A program made the position numbers and the translations under genes. This document shows, one piece after another, positions 21,424 through 38,096 of a stretch of DNA of 64,000 nucleotides. The stretch lies in IMG/VR virus record IMGVR_UViG_3300024255_001088; one strand, written 5' to 3'. The stretch's first letter is position 1. Each line of letters begins with the position of its first letter. The DNA comes from a virus. Below the pieces are notes generated by a model. The model was not told the origin of the DNA. It saw only the letters and a list, made by a program, of their open reading frames with translations, and made no database searches.

Positions 21424-21621
21424 ATGAGTAATCAAGTTAATGATAATATCAAAGAAGATATTATGGAAAACATCTTAGAGATGGCAGATAAAGATATCTG
21501 GAATGTAATCTTTGCAATAGAGAAAGAATTCGGTATTCAAAATGTACCAAGTCCAGTGGGTGGTGAACATGGGTTTATCGCAAAACTGTTCGAACTTAGA
21601 TTCGAGGAGGCATGTCAATGA
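21424..21621 (+). CDS. Early hypothetical protein
   Basis: SD AAAGGAG before ATG 21424 (alternative start 21403). Confidence 0.65.
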   Translation: MSNQVNDNIKEDIMENILEMADKDIWNVIFAIEKEFGIQNVPSPVGGEHGFIAKLFELRFEEACQ

Positions 21622-21923
21622 GTTTGTTTAACGATTACATAGAAGAGGGTTTAGATACCTGCAAATTTGTTAAAGACGGTATGGAATATACTGCAATCAT
21701 CGACAAGGTTAGTGATAATTCTTTACTAGTCAAACCAATTCAAAAGACTAACTGGAAAGATGTTTTTCAGAACAATCTACAAAATACATTTGAACACATG
21801 ATACTACACATCAAAGAGTTTGATGAGATTAAACTCGAACTCTGGATGGATGGTAGGGGTTGCGATAACTCCGCTATAGGTGTTTCAGGTTGTTATGAAC
21901 CTTACACATGTTTAACATGGTAG
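21612..21923 (+). CDS. Early hypothetical protein
   Basis: GAGGAGG SD; coupled ORF. Confidence 0.65.
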   Translation: MSMSLFNDYIEEGLDTCKFVKDGMEYTAIIDKVSDNSLLVKPIQKTNWKDVFQNNLQNTFEHMILHIKEFDEIKLELWMDGRGCDNSAIGVSGCYEPYTCLTW

Positions 21924-24365: not shown

Positions 24366-24390
24366 AAAATTGTGATATAAATAATAGATT

Positions 24391-25103: not shown

Positions 25104-26309
25104 ATGGCCGTTAAAAATCTACATTTAGAACATTTAGAAGATGAAATCATCAATAACGGTATTGATGGTGGTCGTGCTTCTATAACCTTTCTACTCGCAC
25201 TCAGAGACATGATGAAAGGAAATGCCAAGAAAAAATTCAACATGACTGTCAAATGGGATGGTGCACCTGCAATCTTTTGTGGAAAACATCCAGAAGACGG
25301 CAGATTCTTTGTCGCAAAGAAATCATTATTCAATAAAGAACCTAAGTTCTATTGTTCAGTATCAGAAATTAAGAACGCATCTGAACTATCTGGAGACTTA
25401 GAGAAGAAGTTCATAGACTCATTCGAGTATCTATCTAAACTATCCTGGAATAAAGTAATGCAAGGTGACTTGATGTTTACTCAGGCAGATAAGAAGATGA
25501 AGAAAATAAATGATATAGAACACATTACATTTCAACCTAACACAATCATGTATGCTGTACCAGTTCAATCAGAATTGGGTAAACAGATTGCAAATGCCAA
25601 GTATGGTATAGTATTTCATACGACATACGAAGGTTCAAGTATAGATGATTTAGGTGCATCATTCGGTGCAGATATATCTTCTTTGGGTCATAACAATGAT
25701 GTATGGATTGATGATGCAACCTTTAAGAATGTTGCAGGTAATTCTACACTCACAGGAAAAGAAACACTTAAGTTATCTACTCTACTTACTAAAACAGGTA
25801 AGTCATTTCACAAAATCAAAAGACCTTCACTGATTAAGTTCATGAAGATACAAGACACCATTGCATCTAAAGGTGCAGGTGCAACATACAAAACATATAT
25901 GAACGCCCAAATAAGAAAGGGTAAGTTCAATCTAAACTATAATGATTATCTCAAACACTTTGAGAACTATTGGAAAACAAAAGTAGTTGGTGCAGTAAAG
26001 ATGCAGAAGACAAAAGATATCAAAGAACAAATAGGTAAAGACCTTGTCAGAGATATCAGAAGTCTTAAACCATTCATAACTGCATTGACAGAGTTTCAAG
26101 TAGGCATGGTTGAGGCGAAACAGATTATCATAGATGGTTTAAACAAAGCAAAATCAATCGGCACATTCGTAAGAACACCCACAGGTTTAAAAGTAGTAAA
26201 TCCTGAGGGATATGTTGCAATCGATGATGACGGTAAGGCAGTGAAGTTAGTAGACCGTATGGAGTTCTCACTAAATAACTTTACAGCTGCAAAGGCATGG
26301 GACAAATAA
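25104..26309 (+). CDS. DUF6267-like protein with ATP-dependent ligase motifs
   Basis: TVKWDG (KxDG), MQGDLMF, PEGYVA, VKLVDR. Confidence 0.7.
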   Translation: MAVKNLHLEHLEDEIINNGIDGGRASITFLLALRDMMKGNAKKKFNMTVKWDGAPAIFCGKHPEDGRFFVAKKSLFNKEPKFYCSVSEIKNASELSGDLEKKFIDSFEYLSKLSWNKVMQGDLMFTQADKKMKKINDIEHITFQPNTIMYAVPVQSELGKQIANAKYGIVFHTTYEGSSIDDLGASFGADISSLGHNNDVWIDDATFKNVAGNSTLTGKETLKLSTLLTKTGKSFHKIKRPSLIKFMKIQDTIASKGAGATYKTYMNAQIRKGKFNLNYNDYLKHFENYWKTKVVGAVKMQKTKDIKEQIGKDLVRDIRSLKPFITALTEFQVGMVEAKQIIIDGLNKAKSIGTFVRTPTGLKVVNPEGYVAIDDDGKAVKLVDRMEFSLNNFTAAKAWDK

Positions 26310-27610
26310 TGAAAACATTACAATCATTCATATCAGAGGCGAAACAAAGACCCGCTGTTTTTTCATTCGGAAGGTTCAACCCACCCACAATTGGGCATGG
26401 TAAACTTGTCGATAAACTAAACAAGGTATCAAAGTCAGTGAACGGCGACCCAATGATATTTACTTCTCATTCAAATGATAAGAGAAAAAATCCACTGAAT
26501 CACAAAACAAAGATTCAGTATCTAAGAAAGTTCTTTTCTAAGAAGGTTGGTGTACCAGATGCGAACGCCAGAACAGTATTCGATGTCGCAAACGCATTAC
26601 ATAAACAAGGTTATACTAGTATCACTATGGTTGTTGGTTCAGATAGAATCAGAGAATTCGAAACACTACTTAAGAAATACAATGGTGTAAAGGCAAGACA
26701 CGGTTTCTATAAGTTCGATGATATAAACATAGTTAGTGCTGGTGAAAGGGATCCAGATGCTGATGATGTATCAGGTATGAGTGCATCTAAGATGAGGGCA
26801 GCCGCAGAACAAGATGACTTTGATTCATTCAAAGGTGGCGTGCCAGATAAAAAACTCGCAGACAAACTATACAAAGATGTGCGTAGAGGTATGGGAATCG
26901 CAGAGGAGTCGTTCTCCACTCTACCAGACTACATGATTGAAGACTTACTTAGAGAAGGTGTATATGACCCAGGTATCTTTAAGGCAGTATTCTTTATGGG
27001 TGGCCCAGGTTCTGGTAAGTCAACTGTAGTAGATGGTTTGGGTTTGAAGGCATTAGGGTTGAAACTAGTCAATACAGATAAGTCATTTGAGAATGGTCTA
27101 AAGAAGGCGGGTCAAACCTTAGACTTAAATGCAGTACCTGCCGATATCAGAGACCCAATTAGAAAGAAGGCGAAGAGACAAACTACTCGATTGATGGACA
27201 GATACATTGACAATAGACTTGGTCTTATCTTCGATACTACAAGTGCAAACGACACTAAGATTAAAGCGTATAAGAACATGTTAGATAAACTTGGTTACGA
27301 ATCTAAAATGGTGTATGTCAGTACATCACTTCCAAACGCATTGACAAGAAACAGTTCAAGACCAAGACAATTACCAGATGCGATTGTTAAGAAAGATTGG
27401 AACAATTCACAAAAGAATATTGCATCTATGCAGAAACTATTCAAAAGAGACTTCATGCAAGTATCAAATGATGATGATTTAGATTCTTTAAAAAGAAAAA
27501 CTAACTCAGTCTTTGGTAAATTGATGGCATGGTCTACATCATTTCCTGGAAACACCAGAGCAACACTCTGGAAACAAAGACAACTATTAACAAAGAAATT
27601 ACATAAATAG
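26309..27610 (+). CDS. HxGH nucleotidyltransferase fused to zeta/PNK-like P-loop kinase
   Basis: FGRFNPPTIGH, VGSDR, MSASKMR; GGPGSGKST, LIFDTT; N-terminus MKTLQSFISE. Confidence 0.85.
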   Translation: MKTLQSFISEAKQRPAVFSFGRFNPPTIGHGKLVDKLNKVSKSVNGDPMIFTSHSNDKRKNPLNHKTKIQYLRKFFSKKVGVPDANARTVFDVANALHKQGYTSITMVVGSDRIREFETLLKKYNGVKARHGFYKFDDINIVSAGERDPDADDVSGMSASKMRAAAEQDDFDSFKGGVPDKKLADKLYKDVRRGMGIAEESFSTLPDYMIEDLLREGVYDPGIFKAVFFMGGPGSGKSTVVDGLGLKALGLKLVNTDKSFENGLKKAGQTLDLNAVPADIRDPIRKKAKRQTTRLMDRYIDNRLGLIFDTTSANDTKIKAYKNMLDKLGYESKMVYVSTSLPNALTRNSSRPRQLPDAIVKKDWNNSQKNIASMQKLFKRDFMQVSNDDDLDSLKRKTNSVFGKLMAWSTSFPGNTRATLWKQRQLLTKKLHK

Positions 27611-27614
27611 AAGT

Positions 27615-28334
27615 ATGACTACATTATTTAAAAGAATCTTAGAACAAAGAGTTAAACAAAAAAAACAGTTTGGCGAAGAAACCGTGATAGTAGAAGCATG
27701 TTGGGATGGTTACAAACAAGTTGGTACAAAAAAGAAAGGTGGAAAAGTAGTTCCTAATTGTGTGCCAGAAGAGACCGAGATAGAAGAGAACGCAAAAGTC
27801 AAAGCAATGTTAAGTAAGATGAAAGGTGTTTCATCTGCTCAGGCACAATTAATTGCACAAATACCAATACCTGTATTAACTCAAATATCACAGGCATTGG
27901 GTCAGTTAGTAATGGGTGAAGAGTTAGAAGAACGACATTCAGATGTAATGAGAAAGAGAAACCAATCTCAACAGAAAGCACATCAAAAGGCAATGATGAA
28001 GTCTGCTAGAAAATCTATCAAAGACTATGATGCAAAGAATAAGAACAAGAACGAAGAGTCTGAAGTAGAAGAAGATAGAGATTACAAAAAAGAGTATGAG
28101 AACTATCAAGGCAAACCAGAACAAATCAAAAGACGAGCTGCAAGAAATTCAGCTAGAAATCAGTTAAAAGACAACAAAGACATAAAGGGTAAAGATGTTC
28201 ATCATAAAGATAACAACCCAATGAATAATGATAAATCAAATCTATCAATAGTATCTAAAAACTATAATAGAAAAGAACCTAGACTTAGAGAAAGACTAGT
28301 AAAACAGGGGATAATTAAAAATGGCAAAAGGTAA
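27615..28334 (+). CDS. Modular internal-virion-like protein with CWxGY..PNC module and HNH module
   Basis: CWDGYKQVG..PNCVP; DVHHKDNNPMNN..SNL..NR; acidic xEE linkers. Confidence 0.7.
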   Translation: MTTLFKRILEQRVKQKKQFGEETVIVEACWDGYKQVGTKKKGGKVVPNCVPEETEIEENAKVKAMLSKMKGVSSAQAQLIAQIPIPVLTQISQALGQLVMGEELEERHSDVMRKRNQSQQKAHQKAMMKSARKSIKDYDAKNKNKNEESEVEEDRDYKKEYENYQGKPEQIKRRAARNSARNQLKDNKDIKGKDVHHKDNNPMNNDKSNLSIVSKNYNRKEPRLRERLVKQGIIKNGKR

Positions 28335-29202
28335 TAAAACAGACAATGGTGTTCATCTAATGGGTACAGATGAAATGCTTGCCGCTTACAAGGCAGATAC
28401 ACCAGGTGAATTAGAAACATCTTATACTGAAAATGTAGACAAGATGATTAAGATTCAAGGTAAGAAGAACAAAGAAGGCAAGAAGAATCATATGTCTATG
28501 TTGTTTGATAATCCTTTAAAGGGATATCCTTACAATGAGTCAGTAGAACTAAAAGAACTTGAAGAAGAAATCGATGCACTGATTCTATCTGAAGCATTAT
28601 CCAAAAAAATGAATATTCAAAAGTACGCAAAGAAAGTAGGATTTAATTCAGACGAAGTTCAATGGATTATGGACAACGAAGATGAAGACCATTACGAAAA
28701 TAATAGTGCCATGAAAAATGAGTGGAGTGCATTATCATATCCTATCAGAACAGGTGATTACTACTTTGCCTTCATTGGTGACCGTATGACTGATACCGCT
28801 ATCACCAAAGCAAATAACAAAATGAATGATGCCATGAGAAAGTATTTTCAAATGGGTCAAAAGAAACTAGAAACATTCTATGATGATGATGCAAAATACA
28901 GTAAAAAAGATATGCTTGCATCATATATGTGGAATGAAATGTCTCAGATATTTGAAAAACTACCTGCTGGTTTAGGCGCTGACGATACAATGACACGAGA
29001 ATGTCTATACACTGCAATTAAACATATGACAGACGATGGTGAGATTGTATTCGAACATACTACTATGGCAGATGCCATAATCAACGAAGGTATGTTTAAG
29101 AATCTTGCAAAGGGTATCATGGGTAGAATTAGAAATAAACTTAGAAAAGTTAAAAAGAAAATCAAATTAGGCAAAAGAGCCAAAGATTTAATGGTGAAGT
29201 AA
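28321..29202 (+). CDS. Modular hypothetical late protein
   Basis: Coupled ORF; ILSE/IINE junctions; basic tail. Confidence 0.7.
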   Translation: MAKGNKTDNGVHLMGTDEMLAAYKADTPGELETSYTENVDKMIKIQGKKNKEGKKNHMSMLFDNPLKGYPYNESVELKELEEEIDALILSEALSKKMNIQKYAKKVGFNSDEVQWIMDNEDEDHYENNSAMKNEWSALSYPIRTGDYYFAFIGDRMTDTAITKANNKMNDAMRKYFQMGQKKLETFYDDDAKYSKKDMLASYMWNEMSQIFEKLPAGLGADDTMTRECLYTAIKHMTDDGEIVFEHTTMADAIINEGMFKNLAKGIMGRIRNKLRKVKKKIKLGKRAKDLMVK

Positions 29203-29609
29203 TGATTAAGGATTTCAAGTCTTTATTCGAAGAAGAATCTACACCAGAAGTCATTTCTGAGGTAGACTCTATACAAACTAGAATGAAGAAACGCAGAGCA
29301 ATGCGTAAGAACAAAGCGAAGATTGCCTTTGCACGAAAGAAGGCAATGAAGAGAAAGATTCTAGACCCAAAGAAACTTATGAAGAGGGCACAAAAACAAG
29401 CTCGAAGTAAGATTGCCTCTAGAATTCTTAAAGGTAAAAACAAAGCAGAATTGGGTATGGGTCAAAAAAGGGCTTTAGAAAAGATACTCGACAAGAAAAC
29501 AAAAGCAATATCTAAACTTGCCAAGAAGATGTTGAAAGTCGTAAGACAAAAAGAAATGAACAAAGGCAAAAAGACATTAAAAGATGTTGCACCAGGTAAC
29601 ACCAAATGA
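29202..29609 (+). CDS. Highly basic late protein with acidic leader
   Basis: MIKDFKSLFEE..VISE then Lys/Arg-rich body. Confidence 0.7.
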   Translation: MIKDFKSLFEEESTPEVISEVDSIQTRMKKRRAMRKNKAKIAFARKKAMKRKILDPKKLMKRAQKQARSKIASRILKGKNKAELGMGQKRALEKILDKKTKAISKLAKKMLKVVRQKEMNKGKKTLKDVAPGNTK

Positions 29610-30151
29610 AGATAAACACATTCAAGGGCATGGCAATCGATGACACATTGAGAGACTTGCAGATGACAGAAACAAATCTATTGGATAATCCATTCAGACT
29701 AGGTTCAATGATGTACTTTGAAGTAATCAAAGAGGCAAGAAAACTAGTTGCAGAGGGAAGATACAATCTTACAGAGATAGATAAACAAGTCTTAGAAACA
29801 AACTTAGGTGAGTATGATATCTATGAGAATGAACTTGTACCTCTAGATTGTCCTATGATGGAGATGACTGAAGAAGAAGATAAAGATGTTGCAATAGGTA
29901 AACCAAAATCAGGCGGGCCTAAGAAGTTCTATGTCTATGTTAAAGACGGTGACAAGACAAAGAAAGTCACATTCGGAGATACATCAGGTCTATCAGTAAA
30001 ATTTAAAGACCCTAAGGCAAGAGCATCATATGTCGCAAGACATAATTGTGATACTGCAAATGATAAAACCACACCAGGATATTGGTCATGTAGACTACCA
30101 AGATACGCAAAACAACTTGGTCTGAGTGGTGGTGGTTCATTTTTCTGGTAA
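29606..30151 (+). CDS. DUF6321-like protein
   Basis: KKFYVYV..KVTFGD..ARHNCD..GYWSC. Confidence 0.65.
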   Translation: MKINTFKGMAIDDTLRDLQMTETNLLDNPFRLGSMMYFEVIKEARKLVAEGRYNLTEIDKQVLETNLGEYDIYENELVPLDCPMMEMTEEEDKDVAIGKPKSGGPKKFYVYVKDGDKTKKVTFGDTSGLSVKFKDPKARASYVARHNCDTANDKTTPGYWSCRLPRYAKQLGLSGGGSFFW

Positions 30152-30173
30152 AAAATAACACCTAAATATTTGT

Positions 30174-30455
30174 ATGAAACCATACAGAGAACGAATAGAA
30201 GAACAACATGGTACAGGTCGAGAGTTCATATATCGAACATTCGAACCAAATATACTAGATGACGAACTCGTTTGGCACAGAGATAAAAAGAATCGATGTG
30301 TACATGTATTAAGTGGAAGTGGTTGGCAATTACAATTAGATGACAAATTGCCTAAAGATTTAACAATAGGATTAGATTACTACATACCCAAGATGACTTA
30401 TCATAGAGTCATTAAAGGTACTAGTGACCTAGTCGTAAGGATTGAGAACATATAA
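30174..30455 (+). CDS. Cupin-like protein
   Basis: ELVWHRD..GWQLQLD..YHRVIKG. Confidence 0.65.
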   Translation: MKPYRERIEEQHGTGREFIYRTFEPNILDDELVWHRDKKNRCVHVLSGSGWQLQLDDKLPKDLTIGLDYYIPKMTYHRVIKGTSDLVVRIENI

Positions 30456-30466
30456 ATAACTATATC

Positions 30467-30832
30467 ATGGAAAACAAAACTTGGAAAGATAAACTAGAAG
30501 AAGTAAGAGGTTTTAACAAGACCGAAACTTCTCCAGCAATTATAGATGAGAAATTAACATCTGATGAAATCGAGGAAATGCTTAAAGAAGAGTTCAAAGA
30601 ACTTGCAGAGGGCGAAAAGACGGCAGTGGAGTCACTCGAAGAAAAACGAGACAGACTCAAAGAAGAACTCGCACACATAGAAGAAGAGATTGCTACATCT
30701 AATGAGTCAGTTGAAAAAACCATAGAAAAATTAACAGAAAGAAATATGCTTGGCAGACTTGCTAAGTCTTTAAAACTTAATGAAACTGGTAAACAGAAGA
30801 TGTTTGACTATTTCGAACAAGGGGAACTATAA
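30467..30832 (+). CDS. Acidic coiled-coil late protein
   Basis: TATAAATA at 30451-30458. Confidence 0.7.
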   Translation: MENKTWKDKLEEVRGFNKTETSPAIIDEKLTSDEIEEMLKEEFKELAEGEKTAVESLEEKRDRLKEELAHIEEEIATSNESVEKTIEKLTERNMLGRLAKSLKLNETGKQKMFDYFEQGEL

Positions 30833-31596
30833 TGAAATTAACAGATAAGGGTGTATCAGACCAATTAGTTGCTGATATGAGAACCATGTTAGAGGGTCAT
30901 CTATCAGAAGAGCCGTTTAATGCAAATGCAGCTCTAAAGAAACAAAGAATCAAGAGTATGCAAGACAAACTCGAAAATCTAAGAACACAAAGACAACGAG
31001 CTGATGATTCTGCTAGACAGGCAAGAGACCAAGGTAGAGATGACGCCGCTGATGAACACGAACATAAGGGCGATAGAATTAACAGCAATATCAGAGACCT
31101 TAAGGCAAAGATAAGAGATGAGATGAATGAAGACAACACCAATGACAAGTCAGACGATGGTGAAGGTCTAGATAAAGTTAAAAAAGATGCAGTTAAGAAG
31201 AAGTTTGCAGACCGTAAAGACAAAGACATTGACAATGATGGCGACACTGATTCTTCAGACGAATATCTTCATAAGAAAAGACAGGCAATCTCCAAGAAAA
31301 TGGATGAGGGCGAATTACCACCTGCATTGAAAAAGGCAATCGATAAGAAGAAAGGTGAAGACGATGAAGAAGAAGTCGAAGAAGGAAAATTACCACCTGC
31401 TCTTCAGAAAGCAATAGACAAGAAGAAAGGTAAAGATACAGACGATGATGAGAAAGAAGTCGAAGAGGGCAAAGACAAAATCAAATATCGTGGTAATCTA
31501 AAAGATTTGAAGGCAATGAAAGAAGACTTCATGATAATCATAGAGAAGTACGGATTAGACCAAGTTAAGACTATTATCAATTCAATCGAGAAATAA
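30832..31596 (+). CDS. Highly charged prohead-core-like protein with internal repeat
   Basis: DIDNDGDTD loop; EG(E/K)LPPAL(K/Q)KAIDKKKG x2. Confidence 0.7.
   Translation: MKLTDKGVSDQLVADMRTMLEGHLSEEPFNANAALKKQRIKSMQDKLENLRTQRQRADDSARQARDQGRDDAADEHEHKGDRINSNIRDLKAKIRDEMNEDNTNDKSDDGEGLDKVKKDAVKKKFADRKDKDIDNDGDTDSSDEYLHKKRQAISKKMDEGELPPALKKAIDKKKGEDDEEEVEEGKLPPALQKAIDKKKGKDTDDDEKEVEEGKDKIKYRGNLKDLKAMKEDFMIIIEKYGLDQVKTIINSIEK
31306..31431 (+). repeat. Intragenic tandem duplication, 75-nt period
   Basis: 31306-31356 and 31381-31431 encode near-identical 17-aa units. Confidence 0.8.
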
Positions 31597-31597
31597 C

Positions 31598-33076
31598 ATG
31601 AATCTATTTCAAGAGGCAAAGTCAGTTTTAGACAAGGACGGTAAAGTAAATCCTTTAGGTCCTTACGGCAAACAAAAACTCACAGGTAGAGAAACATCTG
31701 CCTATTTTCGTAGAAACAAAGTAAAACCAGGCGATATCAAGAAAGCAGTAGAAGTTGCACTTGACCTTGGTGGTGCAGATACTATTGCAAGACAAGAAAT
31801 TAAAAAGTTCTTTGGTGATAAAATTCTTAAATCAAAAGAAGTTCAAAACGCATTACAATACGCAAACGAAGAGACATTCAGAGATGACCTTAACAATTTA
31901 GATGAGGGTTCATTCTATGGTAGAGATGACTTAGTTAAACAATTTGCTACACCCAAAAATAAAAGACACCTCTTTGTAAAATTAAGAAAGACTGATTCTA
32001 AAGGCACACATGGTGTCAGTATGGCAAAAAAGGGCAACGAGAAGAAGATTGCTGATTATAAAAGACAAGGGTACAAAGAAGTACCAGTAGAATCTGTAGA
32101 AGAGGGTTTCAAACCTTACAATGACAACCAGTATCCTAGATGTGTAGACTTCTACATTCAGTTTAGAGGTGGTAAAGGAGACAGAATCACTTCACCAGAA
32201 AATAAGAAAGATTTTGAAACTGCAAAGAAGATGATTGATACATATTGCAGAACAAACAAAATCAAACAGAAACCAGTTTACTCAACACCTGAAGAGGGTT
32301 CAAGTGCATACAAAGTCGGTCTTATGATTGACAGTACTTACAGTAAAACATCTGATTATAAAGACGGCAAAGACTTGCAACCTTTATATGTATCATTAAG
32401 TAAACTAAAGACCGCAGAAGACCACGGTGGTGGTTGGAGTCAAGCAGTAGTTAAAGAAGAAACAGATTTAACAGAGAACTACAGAAAACTCGCACAACAT
32501 GGTATGGGTGCAGAGGGTAAGAAAGATATCAAAACTGGTACAGGTGTAGATTTCTATGAACCTAAACAAGGTAATAAGAGACAAGGTAAAGTCACTAAGA
32601 TGACTGCTACTGGTTACTCAGTTAAAGATGAGAAAGATGGTAAAACATATACATTTATGTACCACGACAGAATGAAGGCAAAGAAACTTCTTCAGAAGAA
32701 AGATAAACTATCTAACATCATTAAGAAGAACACCATCCAGAAAGGTAAGTTCGCTGGATACATGACTGATTCAGTAGAAGAGGCACAACAAGGTGCAAGA
32801 CAGTCTATTATGGACACATATAGAAATATATGGGAAGAAGACTTACAAGAAGAGATGATTACTTACAGAGTTAAGAAAATGCATCCTGCTGAAAAGAAAA
32901 AGTTCGAACAGTCAGGAAAGTTGATGGGTCTAAAAGTCACCATGAATACTAACAAACAAGATACATTAGTTGTTATGAGTGGCACTAAGAAGAAACTCAG
33001 AGACTTCGACTCAGTTGCAAGAGGTAAATCATCATATGGTGATCCTTCAACAGTATCACACTTTGACGAGAAGTAA
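31598..33076 (+). CDS. Large modular Lys-rich late protein
   Basis: Basic modules separated by NLDE, SVEE, DLTE, SVEE, LQEE. Confidence 0.75.
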   Translation: MNLFQEAKSVLDKDGKVNPLGPYGKQKLTGRETSAYFRRNKVKPGDIKKAVEVALDLGGADTIARQEIKKFFGDKILKSKEVQNALQYANEETFRDDLNNLDEGSFYGRDDLVKQFATPKNKRHLFVKLRKTDSKGTHGVSMAKKGNEKKIADYKRQGYKEVPVESVEEGFKPYNDNQYPRCVDFYIQFRGGKGDRITSPENKKDFETAKKMIDTYCRTNKIKQKPVYSTPEEGSSAYKVGLMIDSTYSKTSDYKDGKDLQPLYVSLSKLKTAEDHGGGWSQAVVKEETDLTENYRKLAQHGMGAEGKKDIKTGTGVDFYEPKQGNKRQGKVTKMTATGYSVKDEKDGKTYTFMYHDRMKAKKLLQKKDKLSNIIKKNTIQKGKFAGYMTDSVEEAQQGARQSIMDTYRNIWEEDLQEEMITYRVKKMHPAEKKKFEQSGKLMGLKVTMNTNKQDTLVVMSGTKKKLRDFDSVARGKSSYGDPSTVSHFDEK

Positions 33077-33077
33077 T

Positions 33078-33404
33078 ATGACATATAAAAGTCTAGTACA
33101 AGTAATTAAAGAACACAATGATGGCAAAGAAGAACTCATTGAAAGAATAAACTTTCATGGGAAAAGTCCTGCTGAGAAAAAGGGTTCAGAGTTCGATAGA
33201 AAATCAGAAATCAATGGTTATAAAAAGATTTTAAAGGCTATTGAAAAGATTAACAAAGACCACGAGAAGTTTCAATGGAACAATCGTGCAGAAGGCCCAT
33301 CTAAAATATTTAAAGGTCTACTACTAGTTGAAAAAACATGTTATGATATGATTCGAGAAATTGAACAAGGTAAATGGGATGGTAAAGTGGACTTAGAAGA
33401 GTAA
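33078..33404 (+). CDS. Hypothetical late protein
   Basis: ATG 33078 just after previous stop; MTYKSLVQVIKE. Confidence 0.65.
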   Translation: MTYKSLVQVIKEHNDGKEELIERINFHGKSPAEKKGSEFDRKSEINGYKKILKAIEKINKDHEKFQWNNRAEGPSKIFKGLLLVEKTCYDMIREIEQGKWDGKVDLEE

Positions 33405-33964
33405 TGGAAAAAGTAGACGCCAGAACAAAAATGTTTAAAGAAAAGTTAAAGAGACTTAACTACAAAAAACATATTACAGATGCAATTGAGGCATCATCAA
33501 ATGTCAAACAAGTAATGGAAAAGATTGCTGACTTTGGTATGATGTCAGATGCAGGTAATAAAAAAATTGCTCGTGCTGTTGCACAATCTAAGAATGAGAA
33601 AGATTTAAGAGCAAAGTTGTTGAAGATATCAACAATGGCAAAAGGCAAGTATGCAGAGGCAGAAGAGGATGAAGTCTTCAATCGTGCCATGGATGCAATG
33701 CAATCAAAGGCAACTGGTGTACAGAATAGACCAGATGCAACGATGTTAATACAACTTCGTAAATTCAAAGATGGAACCAAAGATGGTGAAGTTAGAACAG
33801 ATGATATGAAAAAAATTAAGGTCAAAAATGCAGATGCAGTCAAAGTTCATGACACTTTAATGAAGGTTCGAGCACCAATTCGAACTAAATACTTACAACT
33901 ATTACAAAAAGACAAAAATACTTTTAGTAAAACATTTAATGCAATCTTAAAGGTTGCGAAATAG
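33404..33964 (+). CDS. Hypothetical late protein
   Basis: TAATG coupling; VDART motif. Confidence 0.7.
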   Translation: MEKVDARTKMFKEKLKRLNYKKHITDAIEASSNVKQVMEKIADFGMMSDAGNKKIARAVAQSKNEKDLRAKLLKISTMAKGKYAEAEEDEVFNRAMDAMQSKATGVQNRPDATMLIQLRKFKDGTKDGEVRTDDMKKIKVKNADAVKVHDTLMKVRAPIRTKYLQLLQKDKNTFSKTFNAILKVAK

Positions 33965-33973
33965 GAGAATAAA

Positions 33974-34519
33974 ATGGCATTATGGGGAATTTCAGATGCA
34001 GACGAATCGAAACCTAAGTGGTTAACCGATGCAGATAAGAAAAAAGTTTACGCTGACGCTAGTGGTTGGAGATTTGAAAACCCTAAAAGTGGCGCAACAG
34101 ATGAAGTCTTATGTGCAGTAAGTGGACTTGCAGTTTCAATTGGTTCTGCTGATATTACAGATATAGAGTTTATTTCAACAGCATTTGATAAATCAGAGGG
34201 TGGTACATTATCTGTACGAGTCAGATTTAACGAGGCAGTTGCAGTCACAGGCACACCACAACTTACAGTTGTAAATGACCAAAGAACAAATCACACATTA
34301 TCATACGCAAGTGGTACAGGTTCTAACGAACTAGTATTCAGTCTTGTAATTGGTGCTGCTAACGCTGCTACAAATGCAGGTGATGTTCTAAGTATTGGTG
34401 CAAATGCGATGGCTCTAAACAGTGGTACTGTAAAAGATAACGGTACTTCTACAAACTCAACTATTACCAATGTCGCAGGAATTGGTACTGCTGCTGGTAC
34501 AATTACAGTAGCTGCATAA
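33974..34519 (+). CDS. Ig-like virion structural protein
   Basis: VRFNEAVAVTGTPQL..YASGTGSNELVF; SD AGGAG. Confidence 0.7.
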   Translation: MALWGISDADESKPKWLTDADKKKVYADASGWRFENPKSGATDEVLCAVSGLAVSIGSADITDIEFISTAFDKSEGGTLSVRVRFNEAVAVTGTPQLTVVNDQRTNHTLSYASGTGSNELVFSLVIGAANAATNAGDVLSIGANAMALNSGTVKDNGTSTNSTITNVAGIGTAAGTITVAA

Positions 34520-34529
34520 GAGAATAATT

Positions 34530-34793
34530 ATGAAAATTAAAGTATTAGGAACAGAGACCGCATGTGGAACTTCCACATCTAATGGGTCAAATTTTGGCAG
34601 TACAACTGCCGTAAGATTAGTCAACACAGGCGCAACAGATAGGTTAGTGTCAATCGAGACTAGTGCTAATGCTTTAATTGGAACATTCACTTTAAAAGCA
34701 AATACATCAGAGGTCGTATCAAAAGACGCCTCTGATGAAATCTTTGCCGCCAACGCCGAAGTTAAAGGTGTTGGTGTTGCAATACAAGGATAA
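34530..34793 (+). CDS. Small beta-rich structural protein candidate
   Basis: Ser/Thr/Gly-rich; AVRLVN motif. Confidence 0.65.
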   Translation: MKIKVLGTETACGTSTSNGSNFGSTTAVRLVNTGATDRLVSIETSANALIGTFTLKANTSEVVSKDASDEIFAANAEVKGVGVAIQG

Positions 34794-34797
34794 AATT

Positions 34798-35217
34798 ATG
34801 AAATCATTTAACGAATATTTAATTGAAAATTTAGGTGGGGACTTTGGTTTAGACTCAACAGTACCTTATGACATAGATTCACAGGCAGTTAAGAACAAAC
34901 TTAATGCAGTTTTGGGTCATGTTGCAGTGTCAGAGTTTATGAATCCTCTCGCCGCTATTCAACAAATGGAATCAAAACTCTCTCAAATGGGTCTACATAA
35001 GAAAGTTCAAGTAGAAGGACATGGCGTAGTACAAGATGAAGAGTTCTCAGGTTCAGGCGAATTAAACTTAGAGTTTACTCAATTTGGTGGGGTGTATGGT
35101 AAATCAGTAGATACACCTTTTGACGAAGTTGAGAAAGAAGAAAGAAACATTTCTCTCAAAGTTAAATATGAACAGTTAGAAACTGGTTCATTCAAAGTTT
35201 ACGGTTCAATCGTTTAA
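34798..35217 (+). CDS. Hypothetical protein with capsid-targeting-like N-terminus
   Basis: MKSFNEYLIE from ATG 34798. Confidence 0.7.
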   Translation: MKSFNEYLIENLGGDFGLDSTVPYDIDSQAVKNKLNAVLGHVAVSEFMNPLAAIQQMESKLSQMGLHKKVQVEGHGVVQDEEFSGSGELNLEFTQFGGVYGKSVDTPFDEVEKEERNISLKVKYEQLETGSFKVYGSIV

Positions 35218-35274
35218 ACTTCTTTAGTTGAGTCTACTAAATACTAGTAGACACAACAACTAAACAATTATATT

Positions 35275-35646
35275 ATGGGTCTATTTGACAAAATCACAGC
35301 AAAAAACTTTAACGCATACGCACATAAGCATTATGATGACCCCCAATGTGAAGACATTGAGGACTTTAATGAAGACTTGCGTAGGTTTAGATATCTAAAA
35401 CGACTACTTCATCGTTACCATGAGAATGGTGAATTAAGAGAACGCCTCATGTTGAATCATATGATATGTTTATTCAATGTGTTTGGATTTGAGGCATGTA
35501 TGAGAATGTTGCAGTTTAAGATTAAAGAAGAAGAACATTGGTCATCTATAAAGACTATGTTGTTATATCTTGAACTCATACAAGAGGGTTGGTTGATAAA
35601 CTACCCTATAGATGACAAACTTGCAGATAGATTAAGAGAATTGTAG
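35275..35646 (+). CDS. Conserved T4-like hypothetical protein
   Basis: YDDPQC..FNEDLRRFRYLKRL..ERLMLNH. Confidence 0.75.
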   Translation: MGLFDKITAKNFNAYAHKHYDDPQCEDIEDFNEDLRRFRYLKRLLHRYHENGELRERLMLNHMICLFNVFGFEACMRMLQFKIKEEEHWSSIKTMLLYLELIQEGWLINYPIDDKLADRLREL

Positions 35647-35671
35647 TCATTCAGATTGCATAAATAGATAT

Positions 35672-36301
35672 ATGGTCGGAAGAGTAATAGACAGTTTAAT
35701 CGTATTCAGGGTTCTTAAGATGTTGACAACACCTTTTGAGAAGACACCTGCCTATAAGTTTGGGTTCATTGACCAGAACGGCGTAAGAATCAAGTTCATA
35801 ACAGACCCAGAAAATAAGAATCAAAAACTTGCGAACAATCCAAAAACAAAAGAAGAGAAGAACTCTCTCACACCTTTACATAGACTTGTATTCAATCTAA
35901 AGAAACTAATTAGAAAAGTGCCTGGTGGTAAGTCACAATTGGCATCATATGCAGTCGCACTTGGTTTACTCAAAGAACATACTAACTTAGATTCAGAACA
36001 GGCAGACCAGTTGTATGAAGACTTCTATAGATTACTGAAAGACGAAGATGCATTTCAACCAGAGATGATTGAAGAGGCACAAGACATTGGTAAACTATGT
36101 TCTCTAAAAATGCATGGTTCTGATTATCATCTAAGAACTCAAATCAAACAGAACTTTGATGAGAATGAAGAAATCAAAATATATCCAGAAAAATCAACAG
36201 TCACCAATGTTGCAGAACATAGTATAGGTTATGGTGTACTAATATATGAGGGGTACATAGGGGAAGATAGAGTCCTGTTTACCGCAGAAGATGTATATTA
36301 A
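35672..36301 (+). CDS. Conserved T4-like hypothetical protein
   Basis: LTTPFEKTPAYKFG..HRLVFNLKK..ASYAVAL. Confidence 0.75.
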   Translation: MVGRVIDSLIVFRVLKMLTTPFEKTPAYKFGFIDQNGVRIKFITDPENKNQKLANNPKTKEEKNSLTPLHRLVFNLKKLIRKVPGGKSQLASYAVALGLLKEHTNLDSEQADQLYEDFYRLLKDEDAFQPEMIEEAQDIGKLCSLKMHGSDYHLRTQIKQNFDENEEIKIYPEKSTVTNVAEHSIGYGVLIYEGYIGEDRVLFTAEDVY

Positions 36302-38096
36302 CGAAGTACTATATCATATTGATGAAGACTACAAACAATATTGTGATGCAATAGACTCCATATGTGAAGAACTTCTAGTTGAAGAAGACAAGAAGAAAGA
36401 TGCATGGTTCTTCGACATGTCTACAGATAAACAACAAGACTATCTCAAGTCACATCCAGATTCAGACAAGGCAAAAGAACTCAAAAGAAAACTACAATCA
36501 ATGCCCAAAAGGGGCGACCAAGGTGATACGAGACCGGCACCGGATAAAAAATCTCCGAAGGGGAATGTAGCGAAGACAAATCCCGACAAGGACGCCACAC
36601 CTTCTGAGAAACCTAAGAACGATGTTGGTGGTTCATTACCAACTCAAGTTGCAGACTTAAAACAACACATTGGTGAATTAAAAGATGCAATAGGTTTAGA
36701 TATCGCAACGATTGGTAAGGCATTTAAAGAACCTTCAGTATACAATACAGTCAAGGCGATTGGTGGTTCAATAACTGCAACATCTAAGACCATAATGGGT
36801 TCACTTAGAACGGTGGGTAAGACTCTTACAGTAGGGGGTGCCGCTATACATGACACTAAGGCATTCCAACAGTTAGAAAAGGGTCTAATTAAAACAGATG
36901 AGTTCATGCAGAAAAACAAAGTACTCGCAACTATGAGTGCTGTTGGTGTATCTAGTCTCGCAATTGCACAATGGTTAAGAATGTCATTCTCGGGTGATAT
37001 AGAATCTGATTTTGACTTGACTATTATACCTGCCGCCTTTGCAGGTAACGCTGGGTTCGCAGACTTGATTGCAACGCCAGATGGTATCAAAGGTATTGGT
37101 TTATTGAGTGCTGGTATGGCAACAGGTGGTCTACCTATATGGATGGGTGGTCCTGTTGGTCTTGCAATGGCATTAACATATTCAGGTTTAGTCAGTGCAG
37201 GTGATACAAAGAAAGGCGCTGAGATTAAAAAGAAAATGGTCGATTGGGCAGATAAGATGAGGTCATCAACTGGTGATGTACTGAGAAAAGTTGACAAGAA
37301 ACTTGGTCTAACAACAGAGTCATTGATGAATCCATCGAACATAGATAAACTTCAATTCAATGTATTTGAGAAACTAAAGAAACCCAAATATCACAAAGTA
37401 GAGATATTTGAAGATGGTTGGTCAGAAATAGAAATGATGCCCCCACCCACAAATAGTTCTAAAACAACTAAGTCAGAATTAGAAACAGTCATCAAAGAGT
37501 CGAACAACGCAACAGATGAAATCAAAAAGAAGTACATCAATTGTGCCGATGACCCATGTTATTACATCAAAGAATACATGGAAGACTCAGACTTAGAGTT
37601 TGATGAAGAGTATATGGATTACATCGTAGACCAATGTACACCAGTAATCAGACACTTTAAAAATTCATTCAACAGACCTAGACCATATCAAGTTGCAGAA
37701 GCACTTAATATGAAACTTAAAAAATGGAAAACAGGAACTGCAAACTCTCCTTCATATCCATCAGGTCATTCAATGCAACCATATCTGGTTGCAAACTTCT
37801 ATGCAGAGAAATATCCAGAACATGAGGGTAATCTTAGAGATGCCGCTGATATATGTGCATATGGAAGAGTTCGAGCTGGGTTGCATTACCCAACAGATTA
37901 TAACGCAGGTATACAACTTGCAGATGAAATGGCAAAGTATCTTAAAGATGACTTAAAAGAAGATGCGCCAGTGAACGCTACAGGTAGTGCTGTATCAACA
38001 GACACACCTTTAGTAAGAAGTAGAAACAAGTATCTCAAAAAGAACAAAGAAGATTCTAAGAAGATTTTCGGTCTTTTAAAAAGATACTCTAAGTAA
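36291..38096 (+). CDS. Multidomain protein: hydrophobic domain + PAP2 phosphatase + EDAPVN tail
   Basis: KNSFNRPRP, SYPSGH, GRVRAGLHYPTD; Gly/Ala-rich hydrophobic helices. Confidence 0.8.
   Translation: MYINEVLYHIDEDYKQYCDAIDSICEELLVEEDKKKDAWFFDMSTDKQQDYLKSHPDSDKAKELKRKLQSMPKRGDQGDTRPAPDKKSPKGNVAKTNPDKDATPSEKPKNDVGGSLPTQVADLKQHIGELKDAIGLDIATIGKAFKEPSVYNTVKAIGGSITATSKTIMGSLRTVGKTLTVGGAAIHDTKAFQQLEKGLIKTDEFMQKNKVLATMSAVGVSSLAIAQWLRMSFSGDIESDFDLTIIPAAFAGNAGFADLIATPDGIKGIGLLSAGMATGGLPIWMGGPVGLAMALTYSGLVSAGDTKKGAEIKKKMVDWADKMRSSTGDVLRKVDKKLGLTTESLMNPSNIDKLQFNVFEKLKKPKYHKVEIFEDGWSEIEMMPPPTNSSKTTKSELETVIKESNNATDEIKKKYINCADDPCYYIKEYMEDSDLEFDEEYMDYIVDQCTPVIRHFKNSFNRPRPYQVAEALNMKLKKWKTGTANSPSYPSGHSMQPYLVANFYAEKYPEHEGNLRDAADICAYGRVRAGLHYPTDYNAGIQLADEMAKYLKDDLKEDAPVNATGSAVSTDTPLVRSRNKYLKKNKEDSKKIFGLLKRYSK

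Follow-up and report, generated by a model that had tools for sequence, protein, structure and literature searches.

We analysed a 64,000-nucleotide stretch of viral DNA (IMG/VR record IMGVR_UViG_3300024255_001088; hereafter the window) and, within it, an island of genes at 26309–38096, several of whose products begin with a sequence resembling the capsid targeting sequence (CTS) of bacteriophage T4 internal proteins. The window is part of a T4-like marine myophage. Almost all of its genes lie on the + strand, and they include those for DNA polymerase, clamp loader, uvsX, a gp41-type helicase, a gp61-type primase (38953) and nrdA/nrdB (from 39984). The phage is an uncultured ocean T4-like phage, probably a SAR11 phage. 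Its closest named relative is Pelagibacter phage HTVC008M (Kyanoviridae), which has the same gene order and ~43% identity in the first island protein; megablast of the region against named phages gave no match. A much closer relative is an IMG/VR record, here called G001 (114 kb, 63% complete), which matches positions 3–48848 of the window in nine blocks, the large ones at 96.5–98.7% identity and two short ones at 84% and 92%, and which extends beyond the match into the head module.

The island consists of seventeen closely packed + strand genes (g01–g17; all island features described below are on this strand) between the replication genes and primase/nrdA. It is not discussed in the pelagimyophage genomics paper. 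Its proteins are unusually basic (Lys+Arg 16–33%), and few of them have a recognisable domain. The first, g01 (433 amino acids; 26309–27610), is a cytidylyltransferase-like nucleotidyltransferase (residues ~12–203) fused to a P-loop kinase (~212–389), with the motifs GRFNPPTIGH and SASKMR spotted by eye. The protein g15 (35275–35646) is DUF7207 (PF23837, 2.7e-39; T4-GC198 of cyanophages), an untagged and conserved anchor of the island, around which we fetched 80 related IMG/VR loci as the orthologue set. The domain labels given in the original prediction, which had been made from the letters of the window, fared unequally. The kinase of g01 (AAA_33, 1e-09; Zeta_toxin, 2.6e-08) and the PAP2 phosphatase of g17 (PF01569; residues 456–542, 37656–37916; 3.8e-08, 33.6 bits versus a cut-off of 27.2) exceeded the Pfam thresholds. 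The nucleotidyltransferase was strong in PHROGs ('cytidyltransferase' families phrog_3041, 1.7e-62, and phrog_395, 2e-50) and just below threshold in Pfam (CTP_transf_like, PF01467; 20.4 bits versus 21), and the isolated C-terminal module of g02 fell just short of HNH_3 (PF13392; 24.6 versus 24.8 bits, second half of the profile only). The label DUF6321 for g05 was not borne out: g05 had no Pfam match at E≤0.01, and its C-terminal module at E≤1 gave only DUF5754 (0.018). No island protein matched a peptidase family in Pfam or PHROGs, and no credible family emerged when the modules were scanned one by one against Pfam at E≤1.

A T4-type N-terminal tag on several unrelated island proteins

In T4, the first ten residues of internal protein IPIII suffice for packaging; genetics placed targeting at residues 4 and 7 and processing at residues 8 and 10, and the prohead protease gp21 cuts after L/I-x-E (PMC9026906). 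Across its six frames the window contains 1926 10-mers that begin with ATG, and we compared each of them, using BLOSUM62, with MKTYQEFIAE, the T4 tag that opens ipII and ipIII. The three best, at 26309 (score 35), 34798 (28) and 30174 (27), are all true gene starts within the island; the fourth scores 21. The first two open g01 (MKTLQSFISE, 26309–26338; the top match of the window) and g14 (MKSFNEYLIE, 34798–34827), each with a predicted cut after Glu10 (I-S-E|A in g01). The consensus of the two families is MKTFKEFIxE, with the pattern M-K-[TSK]-F-x-[ED]-[FY]-[IL]-x-E. It is kept over dozens of orthologues (MK[TSK][FL]xxF[LI]xE|AK in those of g01), while the sequence downstream diverges freely.

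The tag is most regular in g14 (139 amino acids; 34798–35217), a protein with no known domain. An orthologue is present in 80/80 related loci, with M1, K2, F4 and E10 invariant; among 33 diverse orthologues the same four residues are followed by a hypervariable spacer of 0–20 residues and then by the conserved domain. Position 7 holds F or Y and position 8 holds I, L or F, with position 9 free; the information content of positions 1–10 is 4.3, 4.3, 2.6, 4.3, 2.7, 2.5, 3.4, 2.9, 1.0 and 4.2 bits, and beyond them about 1–2 bits. The start sits 4 nt past the stop of g13, with AAGGA upstream, and this Met is the real start, because in most loci only a few in-frame codons precede it. The family has 387 metagenomic cluster representatives, none of them named and none with a Pfam domain, and tblastn against named phages found only HTVC008M. 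An AlphaFold2 model (mean pLDDT 60) places the tag in an N-terminal helix, and a search of BFVD with the fold returned only uncharacterised phage proteins. Among the island proteins, g14 is the best candidate for a T4-type internal head protein.

We built a matrix from the marine N-termini only and ran it on T4 bases 50001–100000 as a positive control. As the three best of 380 candidate starts it returned ipI, ipIII and ipII (scores 11.7, 9.0 and 9.0; next 0.0), and the start of T4 ipI, MKTFKEF, is identical to the marine consensus. The positions conserved in the marine tag (4, 7, 8 and 10) are those that experimentally govern targeting and processing in T4. Every string quoted in the original prediction was found in place, and its proposal that the N-termini match the T4 capsid targeting sequence is upheld by this cross-detection, by the conserved key residues and by the gp21-type protease of G001 described below.

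The tag is portable. In the 80 loci at least 9 unrelated families begin with it, and so do several small open reading frames (ORFs) outside the window's gene set. A scan of IMG/VR for DNA encoding exactly MKTFKEFIxE gave at least 120 stretches, where by our own estimate chance would produce less than one match. The proteins that open with these starts fall into at least 43 unrelated families of 43–570 amino acids, with a median of 6 open codons upstream. By eye, some of these families (loci L099–L218) look enzymatic, such as a 138-residue protein with R..YHGT..STS, reminiscent of ADP-ribosyltransferases such as T4 Alt. Outside the island, a 103-residue ORF at 21612–21923 starts MSMSLFNDYIEE; its second Met gives the second-best tag score in the window (10.5), and the start reads MSLFNGYIEE in G001. 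This may be another packaged protein.

A protease that could process such tags is encoded by the 98%-identical relative. In G001, outside the stretch covered by the window, portal, scaffold and major capsid genes surround a gene for a gp21-type prohead protease of the Peptidase_S77 family (PF03420, 1.9e-38, 127.9 bits). The scaffold protein of G001 starts ..QAIAE|A and its major capsid propeptide has ..TLSE|A, aligned with the T4 site FLTE|A; because these sites align with T4-type sites, the protease has very probably retained the L/I-x-E specificity. Among the ten longest of the records with the exact MKTFKEFIxE start, Peptidase_S77 was found in 5/5 that are at least 95% complete and in 3/5 partial ones.

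Three further proteins have variant leaders. The leader of g04 (135 amino acids, 33% Lys+Arg; 29202–29609), MIKDFKSLFE (29202–29231), is a tag variant shifted by one residue that retains L8 and E10, and its orthologues start MKSFRDFLEE, MKSFREYLEE or MKTFREFLED. In g05 (181 amino acids; 29606–30151) the leader MKINTFKGMAIDD, degenerate in this phage, precedes a conserved C-terminal module (phrog_7595), and orthologues start MKTFKExAIxET. The HTVC008M orthologue of g05 (L013 16450–16851; KC465899 109011–109412) probably has its annotated start too far upstream, as an internal Met gives the tag-like MVKSFKEVEE. The third, g10 (108 amino acids; 33078–33404), has a 22-residue leader (33078–33143) ending E-L-I-E before the conserved module RINFHGKSPAE..; in its family there are four unrelated leaders, one of them the canonical MKSFKEYNQLNE, and all end in [IL]-x-E directly before the RI[ND]FH module.

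Thus, of the six N-termini listed in the original prediction, those at 26309, 34798 and 29202 stand, with canonical orthologues, and that at 33078 stands in part, as its leader varies. Two were dropped: MNLFQE of g09 (31598) opens a conserved N-terminal module of 90 residues (MNLFxEAK) without the 7/8/10 pattern, and MTTLFKRILE of g02 (27615) occurs only in near-identical relatives. We also rejected MKPYRERIEE of g06 (30174), the third-ranked match to the T4 tag, as in its orthologues this stretch belongs to a conserved fold, which extends into QHGT in variable register. The orthologue N-termini of g11, g12, g13, g16, g17 and g18 show nothing comparable to the tag.

Module shuffling and [ILV]-x-E linkers

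Five island proteins, g02, g03, g08, g09 and g17, have the make-up of polyproteins. One of them, g09 (492 amino acids; 31598–33076), is a string of beads, with folded modules at residues ~30–91, 120–164, 183–240, 290–366 and 416–480 and linkers YANEE (31859–31873), NNLDE (31892–31906), ESVEE (32090–32104), VVKEETDLTE (32444–32476), TDSVEE (32765–32782) and EEDLQEE (32834–32854); its orthologues range from 252 to 765 amino acids through module gain and loss. The shorter g02 (239 amino acids; 27615–28334) joins a CWxGY..PNC module, a helical module, a basic module and the HNH-like C-terminal module by linkers TVIVE (27681–27695), TEIEE (27774–27788), GEELEE (27915–27932) and SEVEE (28059–28073), and its internal parts match five different PHROG families. 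In g03 (293 amino acids; 28321–29202) a conserved N-terminal module (GNKxDNGVHExGTDE..TPG) is followed by a variable body, with orthologues of 73 to 659 amino acids. The modules of g08 (254 amino acids; 30832–31596; internal matches to phrog_22379 and phrog_4359) are DNDGD-SSDEYLHKKR and the repeated GKLPPALQKAIDKKKG, with linkers EEVEE (31369–31383) and EKEVEE (31450–31467). Finally, g17 (601 amino acids; 36291–38096) has a disordered basic N-part, a Gly/Ala-rich hydrophobic middle, the PAP2 phosphatase and a tail module DAPVNATG.. preceded by D-L-K-E (37947–37961).

The modules are shuffled, as the original prediction had proposed. Whole-module differences separate the window from G001 and from the related loci, and pieces of g02, g05 and g08 occupy differing places in different PHROG families. 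Relative to the window, g02 of G001 has 56 amino acids inserted after ..EQRVKQ and 85 amino acids inserted exactly between VIVE and ACWDGY, the latter insert itself ending in TMDE; in place of the 51-residue basic module that lies between ..MGE and ..EVEE in the window, it has DTVEE.

We asked where such changes fall. Counting [ILV]xE per protein was rejected as evidence: the motif is short and common in all proteins, so that its presence or density (1.44x the shuffled expectation in island proteins versus 1.17x in other genes) is uninformative. Its position is a different matter. When all family members were aligned in pairs, 102 long indels emerged, of which a first de-duplication left 89; the set was then collapsed to 131 distinct junctions. 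At the junctions of module gain and loss in g02, g03, g08 and g09, [ILV]xE was present in 98/131 (75%), versus 15% of random 12-residue windows of the same proteins. The junction Glu has I, L or V at –2 in 38.6% of cases versus 19.4% overall (p 7e-14; such p-values overstate independence, because the junction events are phylogenetically related), and Glu stands at –4 in 53/120 cases, which makes the linker consensus E-x-[ILV]-x-E. The breakpoints in homologues thus coincide with the linkers.

The starts of individual modules follow the same rule. The NYRxLA module start of g09 in 18 distinct contexts, and the DAPVN tail module start of g17 in 14, are all preceded by [ILVM]-x-E with a free middle residue; the RI[ND]FH module start of g10 is preceded by [IL]-x-E in all 4 of its distinct contexts, and the CWxGY module start of g02 follows Glu in 6/6 contexts, with a hydrophobic residue at –2 in 5/6. 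The start of the mature g14 domain, behind its spacer, has no [ILV]-x-E pattern and serves as an internal negative control. Module shuffling is real, and breakpoints and module starts obey [ILV]-x-Glu with a free middle residue.

The predicted structure of g09 agrees with this organization. AlphaFold2, given 36 orthologues, returned five confident small domains that make no mutual contacts (pTM 0.24) and are separated by segments of pLDDT<50. In the model, all 7 [ILV]xE sites and all mappable indel breakpoints fall in these segments or ≤4 residues from them.

Tags and linkers also appear to be interchangeable. In locus L070, taken from a 153-kb record, one 475-residue protein starts with a canonical tag, MNTFKNLFLE, followed by the g03 N-module, four g02 modules and, as C-terminus, the g04 basic module. 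Loci L035 and L044 encode fusions in which the g03 N-module precedes g05, whose leader persists internally as KKTFSQIAINE. The DAPVN module, which in the window stands after D-L-K-E of g17, stands directly after MKTFKEFIKE in an unrelated IMG/VR phage. Tag and linker have one cleavage motif in common at their ends, so that a module can change from a tagged gene of its own to a bead inside a polyprotein, or back.

It is possible that the tag and packaging are real but that the acidic linkers are flexible spacers and recombination joints, the multi-module proteins acting intact, whether packaged or not. Linker near-repeats indeed often flank inserted modules (EETVSE...EETVSE, VEE...VEE), as expected if linker DNA mediates exchange; some junctions lack the hydrophobic residue at –2, and most polyproteins of this window are untagged. 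Recombination joints would, however, conserve DNA rather than a pattern of hydrophobic residue, free residue and Glu, yet at NYRxLA, DAPVN and RI[ND]FH the middle residue spans 8 amino acids, with P3 and P1 fixed. That an identical module start can be preceded by a linker or by an N-terminal tag, alike at the end, also speaks against this reading, as does the exposure to solvent of all sites in the g09 model. We therefore regard linkers that serve only as joints as unlikely.

Cyanophage orthologues and neighbouring genes

The same island is present in cyanophages P-SSM7, S-SM1 and S-CREM2, between the gp41-side genes and gp61/nrdA. The cytidylyltransferases of these three phages start MKKFSAFLTE, MKKFSAFLNE and MKNFSSFLTE and are similar to g01 (PSSM7_191, 4.4e-51; SSM1_190, 3.7e-52; S-CREM2 gp154, 1.6e-34). 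P-SSM7 gene 194 (T4-GC119) starts MKTYSQFIEE, and GC119 genes, at 276–2985 nt among cyanophages, have the length plasticity seen in g09. The untagged g12 (181 amino acids; 33974–34519; phrog_11617, 9.7e-57) is the orthologue of SSM1_195 (BLASTP 1e-22), a cyanophage 'S-layer domain protein' of T4-GC425; the DNDGD module of g08 is common to SSM1_191 (GC1454; 58% identity over 33 amino acids), and the CWxGY module of g02 to S-CREM2 gp160. After DUF7207, g16 and GC426 hold the same position, and BLASTP of GC426 against all window proteins, g16 included, found no similarity at E≤1e-3.

Proteins of this island have been detected in virions. In the examined parts of Table S8 on purified S-SM1 virions (Sullivan et al. 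2010, PMC3037559), the GC190 cytidylyltransferase has 25 peptide counts versus 18 for the portal, and there are 17 for GC425, 17 for GC426, 13 for GC119, 12 for GC1453, 10 for GC1454 and 7 for GC1455; the same parts hold no peptide row for GC198, the counterpart of g15. Virions of S-CREM2 contain gp154 (the cytidylyltransferase), gp155, gp156 and gp160, and the authors, who note a 'frequent detection' of cytidyltransferases and kinases in cyanophage virions, left open whether it is real and proposed no targeting signal (PMC10665884). A full-text literature search for 'capsid targeting' with 'cyanophage' matched only a T4 review.

Two observations concern these virion proteins themselves. The T4-GC426 proteins, P-SSM7 gene 198 (L096 15713–16294) and S-SM1 gene 197 (L098 6306–6854), are basic, 182–193 amino acids long and named 'major head protein' in GenBank; the name seems to derive from their detection in virions, gp23 being the true major capsid protein. 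With S-CREM2 gp160 they have in common an N-terminal motif rich in Gly, AGTGGF..GP.AG[FY]DP. The virion-detected gp156 of S-CREM2 (L097 5013–5726) has a GG..DIDLH pattern that by eye is like that of a polymerase-beta-type nucleotidyltransferase; if so, the island would encode two kinds of packaged nucleotidyltransferase.

The virion data bear on the possibility that the N-terminal motif reflects only an A/T-rich bias at translation starts or a generic amphipathic helix, that the island encodes early or middle host-takeover proteins and that the cyanophage detections are carry-over. Starts with MK are frequent where a genome is A/T-rich, the surroundings of the island are replication genes and not the structural module, and contamination was raised by the S-CREM2 authors. 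The T4 ip genes, however, likewise lie among early genes, and codon bias cannot fix Phe4, an aromatic residue at 7, I/L at 8 and Glu10 in unrelated families. Moreover, in T4 the marine matrix singles out precisely ipI, ipII and ipIII, S77 proteases are found together with the motif, and the examined parts of the S-SM1 table list six neighbouring island proteins, with more counts for the cytidylyltransferase than for the portal. We consider an explanation unconnected with the capsid very improbable.

Some neighbouring features are of interest in themselves. Directly upstream of g01, a DUF6267 protein (25104–26309), which has no tag, contains VKWDGAP, a KxDG-type motif as in covalent nucleotidyltransferases (ligases); its stop overlaps the g01 start (TAATG), and in phrog_455 it is fused to a g01-type nucleotidyltransferase. 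The ligase-like protein, the nucleotidyltransferase and the kinase together look like an RNA or nucleotide repair set. The cyanophage counterpart of the DUF6267 protein, GC71, has no row in the examined parts of the S-SM1 virion table (PMC3037559). The gene g13 (34530–34793; 87 amino acids, phrog_19805) is the only whole gene of the island in whose place G001, otherwise 98% identical, has unalignable DNA (stretch 34524–34787; 263 bp in the window versus 231 bp in G001), which suggests a small hypervariable cassette adjoining the virion protein g12.

Scans for sigma-70 promoters and terminators gave nothing exceeding shuffled sequences, and the late-promoter-like words HATAAATA and CTAAATA are overall no more frequent than expected by chance. 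The words (C/T)ATAAATA and CTAAATA nevertheless lie on the coding strand in 30/33 cases, and many end 5–15 nt before a start codon (examples are at 24376, 25065, 27602, 30162, 30451, 35237, 35659, 45745, 56191 and 58437). They look like T4-type late promoters, placed so near the starts that the messages would be almost leaderless.

Proposed packaging, processing and delivery of island proteins

We propose, at a probability of about 0.62, that the island is the marine counterpart of the T4 internal-protein system. Very likely, the ten-residue tag would bind the prohead scaffolding core and load g14, g01, the very basic g04 and, by their variant leaders, g05 and g10. A gp21-type prohead serine protease would then, as seems likely for the tags, remove them by cutting after the Glu of [IL]-x-E. 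For the next step we see even odds: the same protease may also cut the E-x-[ILV]-x-E linkers of g02, g03, g08, g09 and g17, freeing small, mostly basic modules in the head. The pieces would remain associated with the packaged DNA and be carried into the host cell along with it. There the enzymatic ones (nucleotidyltransferase-kinase, PAP2 phosphatase and HNH-like module) could act before phage gene expression. We infer loading by the tag, its removal, the cutting of linkers, ejection and any effector role from the patterns described above. As tag and linker would share one cleavage motif, such an arrangement would give a cassette system. More tentatively, at somewhat less than even odds, pelagimyophages and cyanomyophages may use one grammar, [ILV]-x-Glu, both at the end of the portable tag and between the beads of polyproteins, so that the protease dices the strings in the capsid and modules switch between the two settings by recombination.

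Several points weigh against this proposal. Cleavage at tags and linkers is predicted from sequence only. The nucleotidyltransferase of HTVC008M starts MKTLKELLRK, without Glu10. In this window g02, g03, g08, g09 and g17 have no canonical tag to take them into the head; they may be loaded via the conserved N-modules of g03 and g09, or via tagged partners. The HNH-like module start is irregular, with a hydrophobic residue at –2 in 6/14 contexts and some contexts of Q-N-E or A-Q-E. The fold of g14 is of low confidence and gives no function. Finally, the S-CREM2 authors caution that abundant non-structural proteins may co-purify with virions (PMC10665884).

The packaged products might, alternatively, be components of the head interior (accessories of core or scaffold, or DNA-condensing basic peptides like T4 IPII, IPIII and the T4 internal peptides) rather than ejected effectors, with enzymes in the minority. 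This reading agrees with loading and cutting as proposed above and differs only in the last step. The very basic composition of the island proteins would suit it, as would the lack of an enzymatic signature in most modules and the universal presence of g14, whose invariant architecture is like that of a structural component. In T4, IPIII affects head assembly, and neither IPII nor IPIII has yet been assigned a function. However, g01 retains its nucleotidyltransferase and P-loop motifs and the PAP2 domain of g17 is above the Pfam cut-off, and the module repertoire turns over fast between 98%-identical genomes, which fits an arms race better. A purely structural role appears somewhat unlikely to us for the island as a whole; the small modules may as well be DNA-condensing or core proteins as effectors.

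The closest known system is the T4 internal-protein/CTS system (IPI, IPII and IPIII; Mullaney and Black; PMC9026906, PMC3012670). In both, a ten-residue N-terminal tag with the same key positions and an I-x-E end is the only thing shared by unrelated mature parts, the genes lie outside the structural module, and the genome encodes a gp21-type protease. The proposed marine system differs in belonging to a Kyanoviridae-like marine phage rather than a T-even phage, in having a 433-residue fusion of two enzymes among its cargo, in mature parts without sequence similarity to IPI–III and in the coexistence of the tag with multi-module proteins whose internal linkers repeat the predicted cleavage motif. 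T4 Alt, an ADP-ribosyltransferase, is likewise a head-borne enzyme; gp21 cleaves its ends, and it is injected along with the DNA. Unlike the candidates here, Alt lacks a decapeptide of the CTS type, and no homologue of it was detected in the island.

Other systems resemble parts of the proposed mechanism. In phages phiKZ, 201phi2-1 and SPN3US, many head-internal (inner-body and ejection) proteins are cleaved behind the Glu of a very short motif, some of them repeatedly, and the prohead protease, of the gp175 type, is a homologue of T4 gp21. Their motif is, however, S/A-x-E as opposed to [ILV]-x-E here, these are giant phages with an inner body and no common N-terminal decapeptide, and no homology to the island proteins was seen. 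Polyvalent proteins, described from conjugative elements and phages (Iyer et al. 2017, PMC5512222), are strings of unrelated small domains, among them kinase, nucleotidyltransferase and HNH-type domains, proposed to be delivered together with DNA and processed into units. The resemblance is conceptual only: g02, g09 and the 475-residue protein of L070 likewise have several unrelated domains in one polypeptide, but the processing proposed for polyvalent proteins takes place in cis, through a Zn-metallopeptidase (MPTase) that is part of them, whereas the island proteins showed no peptidase domain and would depend on the prohead protease acting in trans. That study mentions neither Pelagibacter phages nor cyanophages. 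The proteins of the cyanophage T4-GC190 neighbourhood (Sullivan et al. 2010; the S-CREM2 paper of 2023) are direct orthologues, encoded in the same island and detected in virions by mass spectrometry, with the difference that the cyanophage enzyme has no fused kinase. Those papers list them as unexplained virion proteins or possible contaminants and propose no targeting tag or cleavage grammar.

If our proposal is correct, the reach of the T4 capsid targeting mechanism includes the abundant myophages that infect SAR11 and picocyanobacteria in the ocean. Known from T4 and phages close to it, the targeting sequence has found use as a tool in engineering; in the marine phages it would be part of a natural, evolvable cassette system for cargo delivery in some of the ocean's most abundant phages. 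The tag would give a concrete reason for the presence in cyanophage virions of the cytidylyltransferase and of 'hypothetical structural proteins' encoded by a non-structural island, and the N-terminal matrix together with E-x-[ILV]-x-E linkers could predict packaged cargo in metagenomic phages. As candidates for pre-made cargo, the nucleotidyltransferase-kinase and the PAP2 phosphatase would point to host processes that may be altered in the first seconds of infection.

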